Source: a virus | Lineage: Duplodnaviria > Caudoviricetes | Virus record (IMG/VR): IMGVR_UViG_2921473944_000002 | Span: 1 to 64,000 of that record | DNA: 64,000 bases | Direction: 5' to 3' (one strand) | In this document: positions 41,296 to 63,419 of the stretch, one piece after another | Layout: every line of letters begins with the position of its first letter | Numbering within the stretch: position 1 is the first letter of the stretch | Made by a program: the position numbers and the translations under genes | The notes under the pieces: generated by a model | The model's input: only the letters and a program-made list of their open reading frames with translations | Databases searched by the model: none | Told to the model about the DNA's origin: nothing

Positions 41296-42324
41296 CTACA
41301 AATCTCCTAAACCTTTCTGCTCTGGAGCAACAATATCGCCATCTTTAAAGTACATTCCTATCTGTTCATCAGCGTCAATATCCTTATATAGTTGCACCAT
41401 ATCAGATGATTCCCACGCAACGATGCTCTGAATTACTCCGTCCGGTATTCCTGCCTTTGCGAGGCTAGTTGTGAAATAATGACGCAGACTGTGAATATAT
41501 GCAGGCTTGCCTGATAATCTTGAGAATGTGTTTGACCAACTATTGATGGTTGAAATTTGGATATGTTCTTTTGGATTTTTAGCATCCGGGAATAACCATT
41601 CACTATCTCCATATTTGTCCAATCGTATATTTCGCCACATGTCGAGATAAGGTTTGAATTTTTTGGCGAGAGTGTAGCAGTTAATCATTTTCCCGCCGCT
41701 TTTACCCTTGGTTTTGATTGGATCGCTCTTGTAAAGAGCACCATCGCATACTAATTTATCATTATTAAAATCAGAAATTTTAAACCTGCATAGTTCTGAT
41801 TTGCGTCTACCGCTATACATGGCAAGCGCAAGATAGCAGGCTTTCTCGTAATCTTTACGCTCAACTAATTTATTTAGCAGCGATTCAAGTTCTGAGTCTT
41901 CCCAAACCGTTTTTTCTCTAACAGGTTTATTTGCAGGGCTTTCTACTTTATTAATAATGTTCCTAAAGTTTGGAAATTCATCATCGAGAATATTTTCAAT
42001 AAAGTTACTCATTGATGAGAGAGAAGCTTTTAGTCTTCTGATTCTTGCTGGACTATTTTCATTTGAATTGAGCAGCCAATTCTGATAAGCAACAACATTT
42101 CTTTTTGTCCAACTTACAAAGAATGCGTTGTTGTTATGTTGCAAACACCATACAAATGCAATTTGAATGTCGTTTTCATATCCTGCAATTGTTGTTTCGC
42201 TTCTTTGAACCGAGCGAAGATAGTCCTTGAAGTCTTCAAGCAACTGTGTGTTTTCTGGATTCACTTGCGCCAGAAGCTCTTGGCTAGTGATAGAGTTCAT
42301 TTTCGTCTTACGTCCCATGCGCAA
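41296..42324 (-). CDS. tyrosine recombinase
   Basis: SGRRKSE, KTKG, HSLRH and terminal Tyr (MVQLY). Confidence 0.85.
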   Translation of the reverse strand: MRMGRKTKMNSITSQELLAQVNPENTQLLEDFKDYLRSVQRSETTIAGYENDIQIAFVWCLQHNNNAFFVSWTKRNVVAYQNWLLNSNENSPARIRRLKASLSSMSNFIENILDDEFPNFRNIINKVESPANKPVREKTVWEDSELESLLNKLVERKDYEKACYLALAMYSGRRKSELCRFKISDFNNDKLVCDGALYKSDPIKTKGKSGGKMINCYTLAKKFKPYLDMWRNIRLDKYGDSEWLFPDAKNPKEHIQISTINSWSNTFSRLSGKPAYIHSLRHYFTTSLAKAGIPDGVIQSIVAWESSDMVQLYKDIDADEQIGMYFKDGDIVAPEQKGLGDL

Positions 42325-42347
42325 GCACCTCCTTTACTATTATTGAA

Positions 42348-42430
42348 TGGGAAGTGATGGAGTCGAACCACCCGAGCCGTTAAGCAACAGATTTACAGTC
42401 TGCACCGCTACCTCTACGGGATAACTTCCC
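42348..42430 (-). tRNA. tRNA-Tyr (GTA)
   Basis: GGGAAGT acceptor, CAGA-CTGTAAA-TCTG anticodon arm, long variable arm, GGTTCGACTCC T-arm. Confidence 0.92.
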
Positions 42431-42449
42431 AAAAAGAAAACCGGGGTAT

Positions 42450-56341: not shown

Positions 56342-56731
56342 ATGGCAAAAGTAAAAACAATGGGACAGGCAATCGTAGTAGTATCTGATGTGAAACTTGA
56401 GGATATCAAGAAGATTGAGAAGTATCGTCCAGATGCGCTGGTTCTTAAAGGCGGCGAGGACAATAAAGAAGAAATCTTCAGAATCGGTACAGGTAGCAGC
56501 AGTATCAATACATACGGAGCTTCTTTCTGTGAAGAGACTCGTGATGATGATAAAAAGGCTGTTATTACTATGACAACAGGTTACAACGGAGATGATATCA
56601 AAGGGTTCATCGCAGATGAGCTTGGTGCAGCTCTGACAAACCTCGGAAAGCTTGAAAAAACTATCCCAGCAGTCATCGATGCTATCGACAAAGAAAGAGA
56701 AGCTATTATGTCTGGCATTACAGTTGCGTAG
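56342..56731 (+). CDS. hypothetical protein
   Basis: ORF with AAGGAG RBS, followed by a terminator at about 56744-56774. Confidence 0.75.
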   Translation: MAKVKTMGQAIVVVSDVKLEDIKKIEKYRPDALVLKGGEDNKEEIFRIGTGSSSINTYGASFCEETRDDDKKAVITMTTGYNGDDIKGFIADELGAALTNLGKLEKTIPAVIDAIDKEREAIMSGITVA

Positions 56732-56831: not shown

Positions 56832-57059
56832 ATGATTAAAGTTACAGTAGGAAATAACGTAAAAAGAAACAGCGTAATCGTAGATGAGGCAACAACTCTG
56901 AGATCAGTGCTCGAAACAAATGAAATTGATTACACAAGAGGAACAATGCATCTTGATGGTTCTACACTGCAGCCGGGAGACCTTGATAAGTCATTCTCTG
57001 ACATGGGAATCAGAGAAAAATGCTTCCTTCTGAACGTAGTAAAAGCTGATAATGCGTAA
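56832..57059 (+). CDS. ubiquitin-like (beta-grasp) protein
   Basis: 75 aa; MIKVTV...TTLRSVL...LDGSTL...DKSFSDMGI...LLNVVK follows the Ubl pattern; E1, E2-like and JAB genes nearby. Confidence 0.7.
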   Translation: MIKVTVGNNVKRNSVIVDEATTLRSVLETNEIDYTRGTMHLDGSTLQPGDLDKSFSDMGIREKCFLLNVVKADNA

Positions 57060-57113
57060 GTAGTTAAAGCCGACGATTATCGTCGGTATGCTTACCAATG
57101 CTCGGCTTCCGGG
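57059..57113 (+). repeat. 55-bp structured intergenic repeat, copy 2
   Basis: Identical to 56219-56273. Confidence 0.9.
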
Positions 57114-57159
57114 GAGAAATAATCTCCCCGGTATTATAGGTAATCACGGAGGCGCTACT

Positions 57160-57804
57160 ATGGCAAAGAAAAAGAACAACTTTTATGCGGTAAAGAAAGG
57201 AAAGATTCCCGGTTTATATAAAACATGGGATGAGTGTAAAGCGCAGGTTGATGGCTTTAGTGGCGCTTTATACAAAGGGTTCTCAACAAGGAAAGAGGCT
57301 GAGAATTACTTGGATGGCAATATTGAATCAGAAGAAGATTCTTTAAACGAGGCGGAGGTTACAATATATGTAGACGGAAGCTATGATGAAAACACCAAGG
57401 TGTATGGATATGGTTTTGTGGTTATCAATAAAGACGGAACCGTAGAAAAATATTATGGAGCAGGAAATAATCACGAGTCTGCAAAATTAAGAAATGTAGC
57501 AGGAGAGATGCTTGCGTCTATGAACGCTGTTAGATATGCAATTCAACACGGGTATAAGTCTGTGAAAATTTATTATGATTACAGTGGTATAGAAATGTGG
57601 GCGACTAAGGAATGGAAAACAAAGAATAATTTAACCACGAAGTACGCTTGCGCAATGCAAGAATGGATGTCAGAAATTTTAATTTCGTTCCAGAAAGTCG
57701 CAGCTCATACAGGCGTCGAATACAATGAAGCCGTAGATCAGCTTGCAAAATTTGCGGTAAGTAATTTTTGTAAGGAAAACAGTATAGGGAATGGAATGCG
57801 TTGA
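57160..57804 (+). CDS. rnhA: ribonuclease HI with N-terminal hybrid-binding domain
   Basis: FYAVKKG...WDECKAQVDGF, YVDGS, NVAGE, YDY, KVAAHTG...NEAVDQLA. Confidence 0.92.
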   Translation: MAKKKNNFYAVKKGKIPGLYKTWDECKAQVDGFSGALYKGFSTRKEAENYLDGNIESEEDSLNEAEVTIYVDGSYDENTKVYGYGFVVINKDGTVEKYYGAGNNHESAKLRNVAGEMLASMNAVRYAIQHGYKSVKIYYDYSGIEMWATKEWKTKNNLTTKYACAMQEWMSEILISFQKVAAHTGVEYNEAVDQLAKFAVSNFCKENSIGNGMR

Positions 57805-57942
57805 GGCGCTGATAGATGGTTCGATTCCATCCGTTCCATCTATCTCATAGATGGAAATGAGATATGAGGAGGCTGTCCGAGATGTAAGAAACAGTCGGCT
57901 TGTGGATTGCCGGTACAAATATGCTGAAAATCCATATTAAAC

Positions 57943-58016
57943 GGATTGTTAGCTCAGGTGGTTAGAGCAACCGGCTCATAACCGGTCGGTCATCCGTTCG
58001 AGTCGGATACGATCCA
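57943..58016 (+). tRNA. tRNA with CAT anticodon (Ile2-like or Met)
   Basis: GGATTGT/ACGATCC acceptor, ACCGG-CTCATAA-CCGGT anticodon arm, GTTCGAGT T-loop; lacks the initiator GGG/CCC anticodon stem. Confidence 0.88.
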
Positions 58017-58043
58017 TTGAATATTTAAAAAGGAGGAATTAAA

Positions 58044-59609
58044 ATGTTCAGACCAACCATTAACAATACGCCATTGACATCACAAATGGCAAATAGCTAT
58101 TTCCAAAATATTTATGGAGATAACTTTAATTCTGATGTAACTTTTGTTTCAACATTAAGAGCATTGGTTGCAAATAGAATCAAAGACGATGAAAGAGTAG
58201 TACTTAAGTTCAGGAATAGTTCGTTCGATAAAGACACAATTGAAGGCGCAAGCGATATAAATGTGTTGAATGCTGTATGTAATCCAATGAACTATGCAAA
58301 CGGTACAATCATTGTGCATAATTTTAGAGGAAATGCACAAGGGAATTTGGCATCTTTCCGAGTAATGGAAAGAGGATTCACATCAACATATAGTGGATTT
58401 GAGAGAATCGTTAAAGTAACAGAGTTTTTTAGAAAAACTTTTTACTCGTTATGTTTTGTTAACCCTAACACTAAGCAGGTTGTAATATTCATAGACAACC
58501 TAAATATCCGTCGTATGCATTATTTACAGTGCGCCATTTTTGCATTTATGCCTTGGTATTTTGATCCAAGTGAAGGTGTTACGGCAGATGAAATGGAACT
58601 GATTCAATCGTTAAGAGAGACAACGCCTGACAGATATATGGCTGCGATTGCAAAGATTGCATCTGCATATGATTTTAGATCCATGCATATCAGAAACGAA
58701 CTTAAAGGTTTCGAAACAATATACGAGAAAAGACAGTGCGCAGAACTCGAACAAAATATCGAATCGTATCTCCGCAATATTAGAGACTATAACGATCAAA
58801 TTGCGAATATTCTTAGACAAAAATACGATGCTGAAATTAGATTGCTTGGGCTGAAAGATAAAATTGCGGCATCAGAAGGGGAAGATTCAGAGATTATGGA
58901 ATACTTCCTCTGCAATTCGAAGCTCGATTTGGAGTATGTTAATAACTCTGACCTGACATTTGTTGTCAAGGATTATCTTATGTATTTCGATGAAGATATG
59001 GCAAAGACAATTATTGATAACAATCGAAGCTATATATATCGAAATTCCAGAGATTTTGATGCAGACGATGTGAAGAAGCTGATGTATGCGATTTTCATTG
59101 ACCAGACAATCAGGCTGCGATTCTGCTGTGCGTATACACTCCGGTTAGGAGAGCGTGTCAGAGGATTAAGCGATTACGATTATAATGAAACCTATAGTAC
59201 ATATATGCCAAATCCACATATCGACAGATATAGTTGTCTGGGAAATTACGAGCGAACAATGAACGAAAGACTTAGAGATAATGATGCTATTGGAGCAATA
59301 GAATTATGTATTTCTTCGTGTAAGAGTTTGAATTTCAGTGACAGTACGGTTATGGAAACTTTCATGGCTCGCATGACTGGGGAACATGGATATAGACACA
59401 ATAAATGCATTGAACTCCCAGATGGAAGTGTTGTAGATATGAAAGGTGCTATTGCGTGGATGAAAGAACAGGAAGAAGCTACTGAGCAGAAAGAAGAAAC
59501 TACAGAAAATGAGCAGGAAGTTCCTGAAAGACCGGAACAGGCGGCAGATACAGTTGAAGAGCCAATCGAAGATGATATTGATTTGCCAGACGACGAATTT
59601 GAATTCTAA
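58044..59609 (+). CDS. coiled-coil protein with C-terminal E2/UBC-like domain
   Basis: MPNPHIDRYSCLG resembles the prokaryotic E2 PH(I/V)...CLG active-site motif; supported by gene context. Confidence 0.6.
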   Translation: MFRPTINNTPLTSQMANSYFQNIYGDNFNSDVTFVSTLRALVANRIKDDERVVLKFRNSSFDKDTIEGASDINVLNAVCNPMNYANGTIIVHNFRGNAQGNLASFRVMERGFTSTYSGFERIVKVTEFFRKTFYSLCFVNPNTKQVVIFIDNLNIRRMHYLQCAIFAFMPWYFDPSEGVTADEMELIQSLRETTPDRYMAAIAKIASAYDFRSMHIRNELKGFETIYEKRQCAELEQNIESYLRNIRDYNDQIANILRQKYDAEIRLLGLKDKIAASEGEDSEIMEYFLCNSKLDLEYVNNSDLTFVVKDYLMYFDEDMAKTIIDNNRSYIYRNSRDFDADDVKKLMYAIFIDQTIRLRFCCAYTLRLGERVRGLSDYDYNETYSTYMPNPHIDRYSCLGNYERTMNERLRDNDAIGAIELCISSCKSLNFSDSTVMETFMARMTGEHGYRHNKCIELPDGSVVDMKGAIAWMKEQEEATEQKEETTENEQEVPERPEQAADTVEEPIEDDIDLPDDEFEF

Positions 59610-59622
59610 GGAGCGTTGAATT

Positions 59623-60576
59623 ATGAGTAAAATGATAAAATTACCACAGGATATCCTTGATCAGTATACAAAGGAGTTTTACGAAACTTTAAGATCAGGA
59701 AAATTTCCAGATGGGAAAGTTAATTTTTCCAAGACATTAGGGACTGTTGATAGAAAAGCAACAGTCCTTTTTACAGAGTTGGCATGGCAGAAAATGCAGC
59801 TCCTTATCAGGGAATTTAACGATGAGGTAGCATGGCACGGCATCGCAACGAGATGTGAAGAGCAAGATACATATCTCATTTCTGATATTTTGGTGTATCC
59901 ACAGGAGGTTACAGGAACTACTGTTACTACAGATCAGGAAAAATATCAGATGTGGTTAATGGAGCAGGAAGACGATATATTTAATAACATTAGAATGCAG
60001 GGTCATTCTCATGTAAATATGGCAACCAGCCCATCCAGTGTGGACTTGAATCTATATGAAAGTATCCTAGATCAGCTCAGTGGTGATATGTTCTATATCT
60101 TTATGATTTGGAATAAGAGCGGGAGCAAAACTGTAAAAATTTACGACCTCAGAGAGAATATTCTATTTGAGACTTCTGATGTTACAGTATCCATTAAAGA
60201 TGTTGGCGATATGTCTGGATTTTTGAAAGAAGCAAAGGAATTGGTGCAGAGAAAAACATATACATCTACATATGGCGGAAATGGATATCCGTATTCAGGA
60301 TATGGTGGATACGGTGGCTATGGAGCCAAGAAAAAAGATGAAAAGAAAGATGTGACAAGCCTGGGAAAACACAAACCCCTTACGTCAGAAAATAAAAAAA
60401 GCAAAGGACGTAAGGGGAAGCGTAAGAAAGGAAATAAATCTACTAAACAGGTGACATTAGATGATTACTTCGGATTATCAACCCAAGACGTCGATGGATA
60501 TGATGACGCAGATCTTGATGGTCTGAGCGAGTATGAGGATGAATATTGGCGACGTAAATATGGTTTCGATTGCTAG
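59623..60576 (+). CDS. JAB/JAMM (MPN) metallopeptidase
   Basis: EVAW...HSHVNMATSPSSVD fits E...HxHx7SxxD. Confidence 0.85.
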   Translation: MSKMIKLPQDILDQYTKEFYETLRSGKFPDGKVNFSKTLGTVDRKATVLFTELAWQKMQLLIREFNDEVAWHGIATRCEEQDTYLISDILVYPQEVTGTTVTTDQEKYQMWLMEQEDDIFNNIRMQGHSHVNMATSPSSVDLNLYESILDQLSGDMFYIFMIWNKSGSKTVKIYDLRENILFETSDVTVSIKDVGDMSGFLKEAKELVQRKTYTSTYGGNGYPYSGYGGYGGYGAKKKDEKKDVTSLGKHKPLTSENKKSKGRKGKRKKGNKSTKQVTLDDYFGLSTQDVDGYDDADLDGLSEYEDEYWRRKYGFDC

Positions 60577-60589
60577 GGTGGTGAGATAA

Positions 60590-61066
60590 ATGACAAGAGA
60601 TGATTTTCAAAGGGACGTAAGTAGCTGGTCTGACCTGAGAGCATTCTGTAATGAATATGGGTGTTCGGTATGCGAAGATGTATATTCGCAAGAAGAAATG
60701 GATGAAGAGATTAGTTCAAATCTAGTACAAATGGCGAGAGATGCGAGTGATTGGCATGAACTCTATCATCAGCTTGAAGATATACCAGATGGGTATTATT
60801 TTTATCTTAAAAATGAGTATGATGAATTTTCTGGCGCTGATGATGATGACTTTGAAAGCTATCGCTCTGATGCTTTTGAGTGGGGCGAATACGAGGGAAT
60901 CTTCGAGGATGAAGAGGAAGAAGACGATGACTACGAGGAAGAACTCGAGGAGACAGAGGAGCATTGTGATCCAGATGACGAGTACGAGGTCGGAAATGAA
61001 GATATTCCAATTGCAGATCTTTTCATAGTACCGAAAAACGGAGATAGAGGAATTTATAATGTATAA
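60590..61066 (+). CDS. highly acidic hypothetical protein
   Basis: ORF, very D/E-rich. Confidence 0.7.
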   Translation: MTRDDFQRDVSSWSDLRAFCNEYGCSVCEDVYSQEEMDEEISSNLVQMARDASDWHELYHQLEDIPDGYYFYLKNEYDEFSGADDDDFESYRSDAFEWGEYEGIFEDEEEEDDDYEEELEETEEHCDPDDEYEVGNEDIPIADLFIVPKNGDRGIYNV

Positions 61067-61081
61067 CACAAGGAGGACAAT

Positions 61082-61753
61082 ATGGATTTAAGTAAATCAT
61101 ATGAATTTTTTCAGCCAGAGAAAGATACAGCAAGAATCCACATCGTAGGATGTGGATCTGTTGGCTCAACAATCGCAGAGAATCTTGCAAGATGCGGAGT
61201 GACCAAAATGACATTGTGGGATTTCGATAAAGTTGAACCTCATAATATCGTAAATCAGATGTTTAATCAGAATGATGTTGGTAAATTCAAGGTAGATGCT
61301 CTGAAGGATATTTTGACAGATATTAATCCAGAGATCGCAGAAAAAATTGAGGTTAAGCCAGAAGGATGGCAGGGAAAATTGATGTCTGGATATATCTTCT
61401 TATGCGTAGACAGTATCGAACTTAGAAGAGAGATTGTTGAAAAGCATATGGATAGTCCGTATGTAAAAGCGGTATTTGATTTTAGAACACTGCTTGAAAG
61501 CGCACAGCATTATGCAGCTGACTGGTCTGATTCCAAAATGAAGGAAGATTTATTGAACTCGATGCAGTTCTCACATGATGAAGCTAAGGATGAGACACCA
61601 ATATCCGCTTGTGGTGTTACACTTGGTGTAGCGACAACAGTAAGATTGATTTCAGCTCTCGGTGTGAACAACTACATCAATTTCGTAAAAGGCGATGGAA
61701 TCAAGAAAATGATTATTATGGACGGGTTCAAATTTGACCTGTTGGCGTTTTAG
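61082..61753 (+). CDS. ThiF/E1-like adenylyltransferase
   Basis: GCGSVGS, DFDKVEPHNIVNQ, KVDAL, LCVDS; SACG contains a candidate catalytic Cys. Confidence 0.9.
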   Translation: MDLSKSYEFFQPEKDTARIHIVGCGSVGSTIAENLARCGVTKMTLWDFDKVEPHNIVNQMFNQNDVGKFKVDALKDILTDINPEIAEKIEVKPEGWQGKLMSGYIFLCVDSIELRREIVEKHMDSPYVKAVFDFRTLLESAQHYAADWSDSKMKEDLLNSMQFSHDEAKDETPISACGVTLGVATTVRLISALGVNNYINFVKGDGIKKMIIMDGFKFDLLAF

Positions 61754-61963: not shown

Positions 61964-61991
61964 TAAACCGCCACCAAATGTGGCGGTTTTT
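61964..61991 (+). terminator. intrinsic terminator
   Basis: AAACCGCCAC-loop-GTGGCGGTTTTT. Confidence 0.75.
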
Positions 61992-61994
61992 ATA

Positions 61995-62266
61995 AAGAAC
62001 GTGCAATGATATTTATCTCTTCGAGATAGCTTCTTACTGTTAGTGGAAGTAACAACTTGAGCAGTGGGACAACACCACGGAAATAGAAGGCGGGACATGC
62101 ATCTCCTCCAGAAACATAAATTGGAATAATACATAGAAACCGTCATCTTCAGAAATAAAGAACAAACGTATTGATAATCAACGGATTACAGGTCAGCCAA
62201 ATAAAAGTTGATCAGGAGGAGACTCCGCGGGATACAGTTATACACACATTAGATTGCAAGGTTCTT
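61995..62266 (+). ncRNA. retron-like ncRNA cassette 1
   Basis: Terminal IR AAGAACgTGCAAT / ATTGCAagGTTCTT; two 5' hairpins; 33-nt block identical to cassette 2; ends at the RT RBS. Confidence 0.8.
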
Positions 62267-62279
62267 GAAAGGAGAAAGT

Positions 62280-63419
62280 ATGTACTATATTACTGTAAAG
62301 CAGCCTCCGTCATACCATCAGATGACATTAGAAGAGTTCCTTTTTGGAGGCAATACGCAAACTAGACTAATAAATGAAAATCTTACAAATACAAGGACAT
62401 ATGAAGTAGAAAATATAAGCGAAAGATTTCTTCAGCTTGTAAATGTTGATAAACTTATCGAAAAACTTATATGGTTCAATGAAAGAACAGATTATCTGAG
62501 AGAAAAGCCTAGACGTGATTGGTATTATGAGTTCCATATACCAAAAAAGAGCGGCGGACTTAGGAAGATTGATGCCCCAGAACCAGAATTAAAAGAGGCG
62601 CTCAGTACTTTAAAAACTATATTTGAAGTAGATTTTCAGGCGCTTTATCACACATCGGCTTTTGCTTACATTCACAAAAGATGCATTATAGACCTGCTGA
62701 AAAGACATCAGGCGAATGAAAGCAAGTGGTTTGAAAAATTAGATTTATCAAACTTTTTTGGCAGTACAACGATGGAATGGGTATTACAAATGTTTTCAAT
62801 GGTATTTCCTTTTTCAGAAGTGCTCAAAGACGAAAGAGGTAGGGCAGAATTCGCAAAGGCTATTGAACTTGGATTTTTGGACGGCGGTTTGCCACAAGGG
62901 ACGCCGTTATCTCCAATAATCACTAATATTATGATGATTCCGGTTGATTTCGAGATAGCAAGAACATTAAGAGAGTATAATCATCAGAGGTTTGTATATA
63001 CAAGATATGCTGATGATTTTCAGATTTCATCTAAATATAGTTTTAGCTTCACAGAAATACAAAATGTAATTGTGTCCATCTTAAAGAATTTCAAAGCTCC
63101 ATTTACAATAAACAGTACAAAAACAAGATATGGTTCTTCGGCAGGGCAGAATTGGAATCTTGGTCTTATGTTGAATAAAGATAATGAAATTACAGTAGGG
63201 CATAAGAAAAAAAGACAATTTCAAGCAATGCTTTCTTCGTATGTTATGGATAGGAAGAATGGAATTGCTTGGGATAAGAGTGACATTCAAACAATGGAAG
63301 GATATCGAAACTACTATCGAATGGTTGAACGAGAGAAGATTGATGGAATCGTAAAACATTTAAGTGATAAGTTCGGAGTAGATATCGTAAAGGCAATTAA
63401 AGAAGACCTTGCGGCTTAG
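62280..63419 (+). CDS. retron-type reverse transcriptase
   Basis: FHIPKKSGGLRKIDAP, SAFAY, KLDLSNFF, LPQGTPLSP, YTRYADD, and NLG at the usual VTG position; ATG 62280 with AAGGAG RBS. Confidence 0.92.
   Translation: MYYITVKQPPSYHQMTLEEFLFGGNTQTRLINENLTNTRTYEVENISERFLQLVNVDKLIEKLIWFNERTDYLREKPRRDWYYEFHIPKKSGGLRKIDAPEPELKEALSTLKTIFEVDFQALYHTSAFAYIHKRCIIDLLKRHQANESKWFEKLDLSNFFGSTTMEWVLQMFSMVFPFSEVLKDERGRAEFAKAIELGFLDGGLPQGTPLSPIITNIMMIPVDFEIARTLREYNHQRFVYTRYADDFQISSKYSFSFTEIQNVIVSILKNFKAPFTINSTKTRYGSSAGQNWNLGLMLNKDNEITVGHKKKRQFQAMLSSYVMDRKNGIAWDKSDIQTMEGYRNYYRMVEREKIDGIVKHLSDKFGVDIVKAIKEDLAA

Follow-up and report, generated by a model that had tools for sequence, protein, structure and literature searches.

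Does a phage encode its own machinery for tagging proteins with a ubiquitin-like protein (Ubl), and how would such machinery relate to the prokaryotic systems already described? This question is raised by the IMG/VR record IMGVR_UViG_2921473944_000002 (Duplodnaviria; Caudoviricetes), a 117,339-bp virus that is 99% complete and is placed in the provirus class. We analyzed positions 1–64,000 of this record, a stretch of 64,000 nucleotides referred to below as the window. An earlier note, made from the letters of the window, had proposed a Ubl, an E2-like protein, a JAB protease, and an E1 at 56832–61753. All four open reading frames (ORFs) are present there, co-oriented as the note had stated, on the + strand, and are 75, 521, 317, and 223 amino acids (aa) long. 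We consider it moderately probable that they make up a complete phage-encoded Ubl conjugation cassette, the gene order of which is like that of the bacterial system Bil, and that this cassette is preceded by a 129-aa partner (p129) and tied to a retron-type reverse transcriptase (RT). The gene for p129 was absent from the earlier note but belongs to the conserved set. The genes concerned are the following:

56342–56731, + strand: p129, a 129-aa partner of predicted mixed alpha/beta structure ending in a helical hairpin, directly upstream of the Ubl gene
56832–57059, + strand: Ubl, a predicted 75-aa ubiquitin-like beta-grasp tag with the C terminus K-A-D-N-A
58044–59609, + strand: E2L, the 521-aa E2-like protein, of three parts, with a UBC/RWD-like domain containing Cys398 and an acidic tail
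59623–60576, + strand: JAB/JAMM metalloprotease, 317 aa, with the catalytic domain at about residues 46–200
61082–61753, + strand: E1, 223 aa, a minimal ThiF-type adenylation domain with an invariant Cys177
62265–63419, + strand: retron-type RT (NCBIfam retron_St85_RT, E 1.8e-49), outside the span of the earlier note

The predicted tag and its proposed trimming and activation

The fold of the tag was examined on a natural Ubl-p129 fusion, P0123, the Ubl part of which is 69% identical to the Ubl of the window. The fusion was folded with AlphaFold2 (AF2) from a 92-row alignment. The model had a predicted local distance difference test (pLDDT) score of 96.4, and its residues 1–75 form a beta-grasp. 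All 50 of the top VIA structural matches to the model were Ubl folds (Ub, SUMO, ISG15, or BilA), and the best Foldseek matches were SUMO, ubiquitin, ISG15, and bacterial BilA, with a probability of 1.0. The beta-grasp fold that had been proposed for the 75-aa protein is thus borne out on this homologue. Weak matches to Pfam DUF2604, which we take to be a member of the ubiquitin clan, were obtained for 8 of 18 Ubl orthologues (best E 0.0016).

The earlier note had also claimed that the Ubl ends in Ala and not in Gly-Gly, and this turned out to be a rule of the family. The reactive Gly or Gly-Gly end that is expected of ubiquitin-like modifiers is replaced in the protein by Asn-Ala (NA), and NA is found at the tag end in 114 of the 129 cluster representatives that show the motif, the remaining 15 having AA, GA, CA, GG, SA, SG, AG, or NG at the same place. 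The protein stops directly after the motif in 67 representatives; in 25 it is followed by 1–4 further residues that are not conserved (such as A, R, NA, or LAA). Even in the Ubls that diverge most, the terminal residues are ...KANA or ...AKNA. Since Ala75 is more than 90% conserved and conservation ceases after it, Ala75 is most likely the mature end of the tag, as judged from the alignment, with NA occupying the position of the Gly-Gly of ubiquitin. Asn74 was considered as the reactive end after removal of the Ala, and was rejected on the same ground. The precedent named in the note, that Cap2 substrates may end in Gly or Ala, is correct, and Gly-to-Ala mutants of these substrates still make the thioester (PMC10097602). 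In one locus (L005, 7152–7400) the Ubl stops after ...KAD at a TGA, and the next in-frame codons read L-A-G-N-A-K before another stop; for the NA end just past the first stop, read-through, a mutation of recent date, and an error in sequencing are possible explanations.

Of 150 Ubl cluster representatives, 30 have the C terminus of the Ubl fused to a p129 homologue, which follows Ala75 without a linker or with a short one and has lost its own Met. Tandem di-Ubls were found in two representatives. A free tag end in such fusions and di-tags requires a cut after Ala75, for which JAB is the obvious candidate, and the arrangement of these proteins suggests that JAB probably does trim the tag. At the level of sequence, the Ubl-p129 fusion is a Rosetta-stone link between the tag and p129, and the natural fusions look just like a linear conjugate of the tag to the N terminus of p129. 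The fusion-bearing phages L048–L050 retain E2L, JAB, E1, and RT. In L051 (8300–10700), a short array of tags and partners lies upstream of E2L: p129 comes first, followed by two Ubl-p129 fusion genes that are nearly identical, and then by a Ubl gene that is free.

The p129 gene lies directly upstream of Ubl in 44 of 47 phage loci, the other three being cut off upstream. No match for p129 was obtained with Pfam, NCBIfam, PHROG, PADLOC, or PDB sequence profiles; a member-by-member scan of its alignment was also empty, and hhalign gave nothing for p129 against E2L or the Prok-E2_D family. In the P0123 model its secondary structure runs bb-a-a-bbbb-aa (a, helix; b, strand), and the structure-search lists for this fusion model were filled by Ubl matches. 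Read from the secondary structure alone, p129 may resemble the a-b4-a2 core of UBC/RWD domains. The p129 alignment contains neither a universally conserved Lys nor a conserved catalytic set.

For JAB, the JAMM signature E...HxHx7Sx2D is matched exactly by E68, H128-S-H130, S138, and D141, all of which are invariant in 22 orthologues. Prok-JAB (PF14464) was the commonest weak Pfam match, being found for 5 of the 22 orthologues (best E 0.0083). The protein of the window itself had no PF14464 or PF01398 match over the cut-off in Pfam, and no JAMM match in the PDB profile search. The JAMM protease named in the earlier note is therefore supported by the invariant motif together with the weak Prok-JAB matches. 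It may be added that the tail of the protein (60220–60576, about residues 200–317) is of low complexity, being first rich in Gly and Tyr, then rich in Lys, and at the end acidic with Tyr; among orthologues it differs in length and sequence but keeps its character.

The identification of the ThiF/E1 protein is certain. It matched Pfam ThiF (PF00899) with an E value of 2.7e-24, scoring 86.1 bits against a cut-off of 28.1 bits. The PADLOC Cap2 'E1-E2' models matched with E 4e-20 and NCBIfam 6A-MBL cap2_3 with E 4.9e-20, and among the other NCBIfam models ThiF (PRK08644) and, weakly, PRTRC_ThiF were matched. In the PDB profile search Uba1, Uba5, MoeB, MccB, TcdA, and Cap2 were found (E 1e-15 to 1e-8). 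The motif GCGSxG and the residues D47/D49, N55, K70, D110, and S175-A-C177 are invariant in 22 orthologues. Cys177 presumably corresponds in position to the crossover-loop Cys of MoeB/ThiF. On these sequence features, E1 is probably a minimal and divergent but active adenylating enzyme.

The E2-like protein

The AF2 model of the whole E2L (pLDDT 87.5) consists of an alpha/beta domain (residues 1–220), a helix of 55 residues (223–277), a second domain (283 to about 480), and a disordered acidic tail. The secondary structure of the second domain follows the order a-b-b-(helical insert)-b-b-loop-helices, which is UBC-like. The structural matches of the whole-protein model were RWD domains (Z scores 7.3 and 5.0), which are non-catalytic and structurally related to E2s (PMC9646525). 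A Foldseek search with the same model was empty in PDB, and all that it retrieved from BFVD were phage proteins without a name. When residues 280–490 were compared with the ESM Atlas, the three best named clusters were all Prok-E2_D (PF14460; score 0.88, 171–176 shared features, many viral).

In a set of 15 orthologues reaching down to 29% identity, five residues of E2L (N390, H392, C398, S425, and N430) never vary. Among the Cys residues only Cys398 is strictly invariant, C361 being kept in 14 of the 15 and C426 and C455 being often lost. The codon of Cys398 occupies 59235–59237, within PNPHIDRYSCLG, in agreement with the Cys codon at 59235 that the earlier note had reported. Cys398 is located in the loop that follows strand 4 and comes 8 residues behind the conserved Asn (N390), as a catalytic-type Cys would, and the HPN...Cys motif of canonical E2s has the same Asn-x7-Cys spacing. 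A four-Cys zinc site in E2L was also considered and was ruled out, as the wider orthologues lose C426 and C455.

The UBC fold that had been proposed for the 521-aa protein is thus supported in part. Its topology, the RWD structural matches, the Prok-E2_D embedding, and the invariant Asn-x7-Cys all speak for it, and profile matches to E2 families are lacking. The PF14460 hidden Markov model (HMM), with its cut-off of 25 bits, gave no match at E ≤ 10 for 32 members of the E2L family, nor any match in the whole phage genome, and a member-by-member scan of the E2L alignment was empty as well. Taken together, an E2 fold is probable for this protein, and we are fairly confident that E2L contains an active E2-like domain.

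Several results weigh against a working conjugation cassette. E2L has no sequence-profile support, since the Pfam, NCBIfam, PADLOC, and PDB profile searches were all negative, and hhalign of E2L (whole or residues 283–480) against two Prok-E2_D alignments was not significant (probability below 1%). The structural matches of E2L are to a non-catalytic domain, at middling Z scores and from a predicted model of the whole protein. The Ubl fold, too, is that of a model of the homologue P0123 and not of the window's own protein. E1 scores far below every curated NCBIfam cut-off, and in the HMMER alignments to Uba1 and Uba5 an invariant Asn58 stands at the position that Arg occupies in the N-L-x-R-Q motif. 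Finally, p129 is not an obvious Lys target, as it is without a universally conserved Lys. In a forced alignment of E2L with Prok-E2_D the two conserved Cys residues are superposed, which we count as no evidence.

Conservation of the block and its tie to the reverse transcriptase

The gene order Ubl/E2L-JAB-E1-RT was kept in all 47 IMG/VR phage contigs (40–135 kb) that were collected with E2L as the seed. Ubl was missed by tblastn in 3 of these 47 loci, and was later seen by eye in L037 and L047. The same gene order was found in 12 contigs of metagenome-assembled genomes (MAGs) binned to Clostridia (Oscillospiraceae, Ruminococcus, Roseburia, Eubacteriales); by this binning, Clostridia are candidate hosts. 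Among GenBank phage records, a homologue of E2L was found in MT835544.1 alone (L181; human faeces, unannotated). All six genes occur there in unchanged order, and the proteins are 26% (E2L), 52% (Ubl), 53% (E1), and 41% (RT) identical to those of the window. Altogether, about 130 contigs from phages and MAGs retain the block of partner, Ubl, E2, JAB, E1, and RT, with E2 identity going down to 26%. The most conserved protein of the set is Ubl, which is about 79% identical where E2L is 46% identical. The E2L family has 912 database relatives, none of which carries a Pfam domain, and a profile search of 1.8 billion representatives placed the Ubl family in 763 clusters at 50% identity.

A functional link to the neighbouring RT had been put forward in the earlier note as one that rests only on adjacency, together with a check of the co-occurrence of the two across related phages. 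RT lies downstream of E1 in 47 of the 47 E2L-seeded loci. In an independent search seeded with RT, Ubl, E2L, JAB, and E1 were found upstream by tblastn in 68 of the 70 loci that have at least 6.5 kb of upstream flank; in one of the remaining two, inspection by eye revealed a Ubl that is divergent. The link is thus stronger than adjacency in one genome. As a matter of synteny the coupling to RT is real, although shared ancestry within one lineage may account for part of it. RT was also considered as a substrate in the manner of Cap2, and was ruled out because the C termini of the RTs are not conserved.

The remaining features of the block in the window are these, the first three lying within the span of the earlier note but absent from it:

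57088–57804, + strand: RNase H1-type enzyme with a hybrid-binding domain and RNase H (Pfam Cauli_VI, E 1e-20; RNase_H, E 5.6e-14)
57943–58016, + strand: tRNA-Met (CAT), found by ARAGORN, with blastn matches to phage tRNA genes, between the RNase H gene and E2L
60590–61066, + strand: acidic ORF of 158 aa, weakly conserved, lying elsewhere in many relatives
between E1 and RT: p68, an ORF of 68 aa

RNase H, tRNA-Met, and p68 are confined to the closest relatives, RNase H being present at this site in L001–L004, L006, and L007 only. Hence, the core of the block is p129-Ubl-E2L-JAB-E1-RT. In L084 an RNase H homologue lies directly after RT, which suggests that RNase H serves RT and not the Ubl set. 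Relatives of the acidic ORF (30–59% identity by tblastn) are often found 5–6 kb downstream of RT in other loci. Since orthologues of each of the four ORFs of the earlier note occur in the same order across contigs, we regard those four as real genes and not as chance ORFs. Pfam, NCBIfam, PHROGs, and PADLOC gave no family match for the Ubl, E2L, JAB, p129, acidic ORF, and p68 proteins.

In keeping with an operon, the gaps between genes are 2–15 nt across E2L, JAB, the acidic ORF, E1, and p68, and no promoter-like or terminator-like signal within the block rose above background. Directly after p68, at 61965–61989, there is a 10-bp GC-rich hairpin, which marks where the Ubl cassette gives way to the region of the noncoding RNAs (ncRNAs) and RT. 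Three genes for tyrosine recombinases are present in the phage genome, at 41374–41895 (−), 86853–87377 (+), and 116716–117288 (+), one of them at the extreme end of the record and another beside a tRNA-Tyr gene (42347–42431). In MT835544.1 (1900–2450 and 9500–12300), nine paralogous genes around the cassette encode proteins of 67–97 aa that all end in C-x-C-x-S-L-L; such paralogues are absent from the window and from the eight related loci that were checked.

Known systems, alternative readings and possible role

The closest gene order is that of Bil, in which Ubl, E2, a deubiquitinase, and E1 follow one another and the deubiquitinase trims its Ubl (PMC10557695). The phage, likewise, has Ubl, E2L, JAB, and E1 in this order as four separate genes. 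It differs from Bil in that the tag ends in Asn-Ala, whereas the Ubl of Bil has a universally conserved Gly; in that E1 is a single adenylation domain of 223 aa, whereas BilD is a multidomain protein (IAD-AAD-CYS); and in that the E2 domain, with Asn-x-His ahead of its Cys, makes up the final third of a 521-aa protein. Moreover, the phage cassette is virus-encoded, has the extra partner p129, and is tied to a reverse transcriptase.

With type II CBASS (a signaling system against phages that is based on cyclic oligonucleotides) the cassette shares an E1 that, among the defence models, scores best against the Cap2 type, an Ala end of the kind that Cap2 accepts in its substrates (PMC10097602), and the position of the conjugation enzymes beside a gene for a nucleotide polymerase. 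However, E1 and E2L are separate genes in the phage, whereas Cap2 is an E2-E1 fusion, and the phage has a true beta-grasp tag where CBASS uses the tail of the CD-NTase itself. No CD-NTase model matched any of nine neighbouring proteins. The neighbouring polymerase is instead a retron-type RT with unconserved C termini, so that RT itself is not the tag.

By language-model features (0.88), the nearest named family of the E2-like domain is Prok-E2_D, one member of which is named 'PRTRC genetic system protein B' in a source. The motif P-F-x-N...C-x-G-x-N of that family resembles P-N-x-H-I...C-x-G-N of E2L. Against a PRTRC assignment, there is no HMM or profile-profile match, no ParB, and no match to the PRTRC A–F models, and E1 scored 32.5 bits against the 144.75-bit cut-off of PRTRC_ThiF. 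A PRTRC-like pair was seen in a Clostridia genome (L096, 165–1621, −), where a true Prok-E2_D gene (PF14460, E 1e-20) is directly followed by a gene for a 247-aa ThiF-type E1; the pair would serve well for comparison.

In Bub (operon type 6E of Iyer et al. 2006), as in the phage family, the Ubl may be C-terminally fused to an operon protein or be in tandem, and is then released by JAB (PMC11601596, PMC1779556); the JAB of Bub cuts a Ubl-E2 fusion (PMC11601596). The enzymes of Bub, however, are without a catalytic Cys, act via oxyesters, and are accompanied by the serine protease DUF6527, whereas C177 of E1 and C398 of E2L are invariant in the phage family. The Pfam scan of the cassette proteins gave no match to DUF6527. 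The cassette thus shares traits with Bil, Cap2, PRTRC, and Bub and yet fails a defining feature of each, and we regard it as a variant of the Bil/CBASS/PRTRC-type systems.

The analysis yields the parts and their conserved residues; the chemical steps, every one of which we infer, would be as follows. JAB would cut behind ...K-x-D-N-A, removing the 1–4 extra residues, the second Ubl, or the fused p129, and so free the C terminus at Ala75. The minimal ThiF-type E1 would adenylate Ala75 and would probably take the tag onto Cys177, after which the tag would pass to Cys398 in the UBC/RWD-like domain of E2L. Because no E3 is encoded, the choice of target would fall to E2L itself, with its N-terminal domain and long helix selecting the target; the E2s of Bil, likewise without an E3, have been proposed to choose their targets themselves (PMC10557695). 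The tag would then be joined to an amine on the target, and JAB could also reverse the mark. In this scheme p129 would be an obligate partner, either as a preferred target or as a cofactor. Our best guess is that the cassette would act as one unit with the retron RT and its ncRNAs. More tentatively, p129-Ubl-E2L-JAB-E1-RT and the retron-like ncRNAs might even be one machine, a new kind of retron with a Ubl-conjugation arm for effector or regulatory purposes. The reverse-transcribed DNA or RT would then control the tagging or be tagged (p129 or the RT complex, for example), and JAB would reset the switch.

Could the same genes do something other than E2-dependent tagging? It is unlikely that E2L is a non-catalytic, RWD-like scaffold and that E1 alone activates and transfers the Ubl, as in archaeal SAMP/UbaA or in TtuB/TtuC of Thermus. 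All significant structural matches of E2L do fall in the non-catalytic branch of the fold, and there is no E2 HMM match; but its sole strictly invariant Cys, in the loop after strand 4, with an invariant Asn 8 residues upstream and an adjacent invariant His, has the layout of active E2s (HPN...Cys), and Prok-E2_D clusters are nearest in the embedding. The earlier note had offered two candidate roles, tagging of host or phage proteins and reversal by JAB of the host's antiviral conjugation. The invariant Asn-x7-Cys also argues against the second of these, a counter-defence without tagging, in which JAB would strip the conjugates of the host's Bil or CBASS, the Ubl would be a decoy, and E1 and E2L would have other roles. 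A decoy or an isopeptidase needs neither that motif, nor a conserved E1 with intact nucleotide loop, Mg-binding Asp, and Cys, nor a strictly kept NA end with trimmed extensions. Although conjugate cleavage is an activity of the JABs found in Bil and CBASS (PMC10557695, PMC10097602) and the Ubl is structurally like BilA, we hold this to be improbable. Hardly credible is a pathway with no protein tagging at all, whether a thiocarboxylate of the ThiS/MoaD type with p129 as acceptor or an MccB-type modification of the Asn after removal of Ala75. MccB and ThiF/MoeB are indeed among the PDB relatives of E1, the Ubl-partner fusions recall the JAB-cleaved MoaD/ThiS fusions (discussed in PMC1779556), and an Asn lies one residue from the end of the Ubl. 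However, Gly-Gly is lacking; the well-conserved Ala75, and not Asn74, is the last conserved residue; rare members swap NA for GG, GA, or AG; the set never lacks an E2-like protein whose Cys is of the catalytic type; and p129 has no conserved catalytic set.

If E2-dependent tagging does take place, the same chemistry could still serve the lysogen. RT, the ncRNAs, and the Ubl cassette could form a superinfection-exclusion or abortive-infection system, in which the Ubl set would be the effector arm of the retron, in the way that Bil tags a structural protein of an incoming phage; we regard this as possible though doubtful. Every characterized relative is anti-phage (Bil, type II CBASS, and retrons; PMC10557695, PMC10097602, PMC11601596), one homologous locus is inside a 359-kb MAG contig, and RT and the cassette are inseparable. 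That all characterized relatives are defences and that the phage is temperate argues for a retron that protects the lysogen by means of a Ubl effector arm, and the provirus class together with the three tyrosine recombinases makes a role in lysogen defence an equally live reading. On the other hand, the defence cargo of prophages usually varies between relatives, whereas this block sits at one fixed place in the approximately 130 contigs; it is co-oriented with an HU-like gene and other conserved genes and so is part of the core of the lineage; and no known defence regulators were seen beside it. The fixed position, the conservation down to 26% identity, and the place in the core of the lineage argue for a function in the phage's own cycle. 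The 'early region' to which the earlier note had assigned the genes is an assumption. On balance, the two roles, in the phage's own cycle or in defence of the lysogen, are about equally open.

Prokaryotic Ubl conjugation has reportedly been shown to work for Cap2 of CBASS in 2023 and for Bil and Bub in 2024, each a host defence or a suspected one. We came across no publication that treats a Ubl-E2-JAB-E1 cassette carried by a phage, nor one that treats the pairing of such a cassette with a retron-type RT. The locus described here belongs to a large family of Ubl machinery on the virus side, in uncultured gut phages, with hundreds of sequence clusters. Its Asn-Ala end, the fusions that point to a dedicated partner and to maturation by a protease, and the strict coupling to RT make it attractive for experiment. 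If the proteins work as proposed, they would provide E1 (223 aa), E2, and protease as a compact set, together with a tag end of a new kind, and both what the phage gains from tagging of its own and whether reverse transcription is coupled to the tagging would become directly testable. If, further, the genes and the ncRNAs are one machine, Ubl tagging would for the first time be linked to reverse transcription, and this in a phage rather than in a host.

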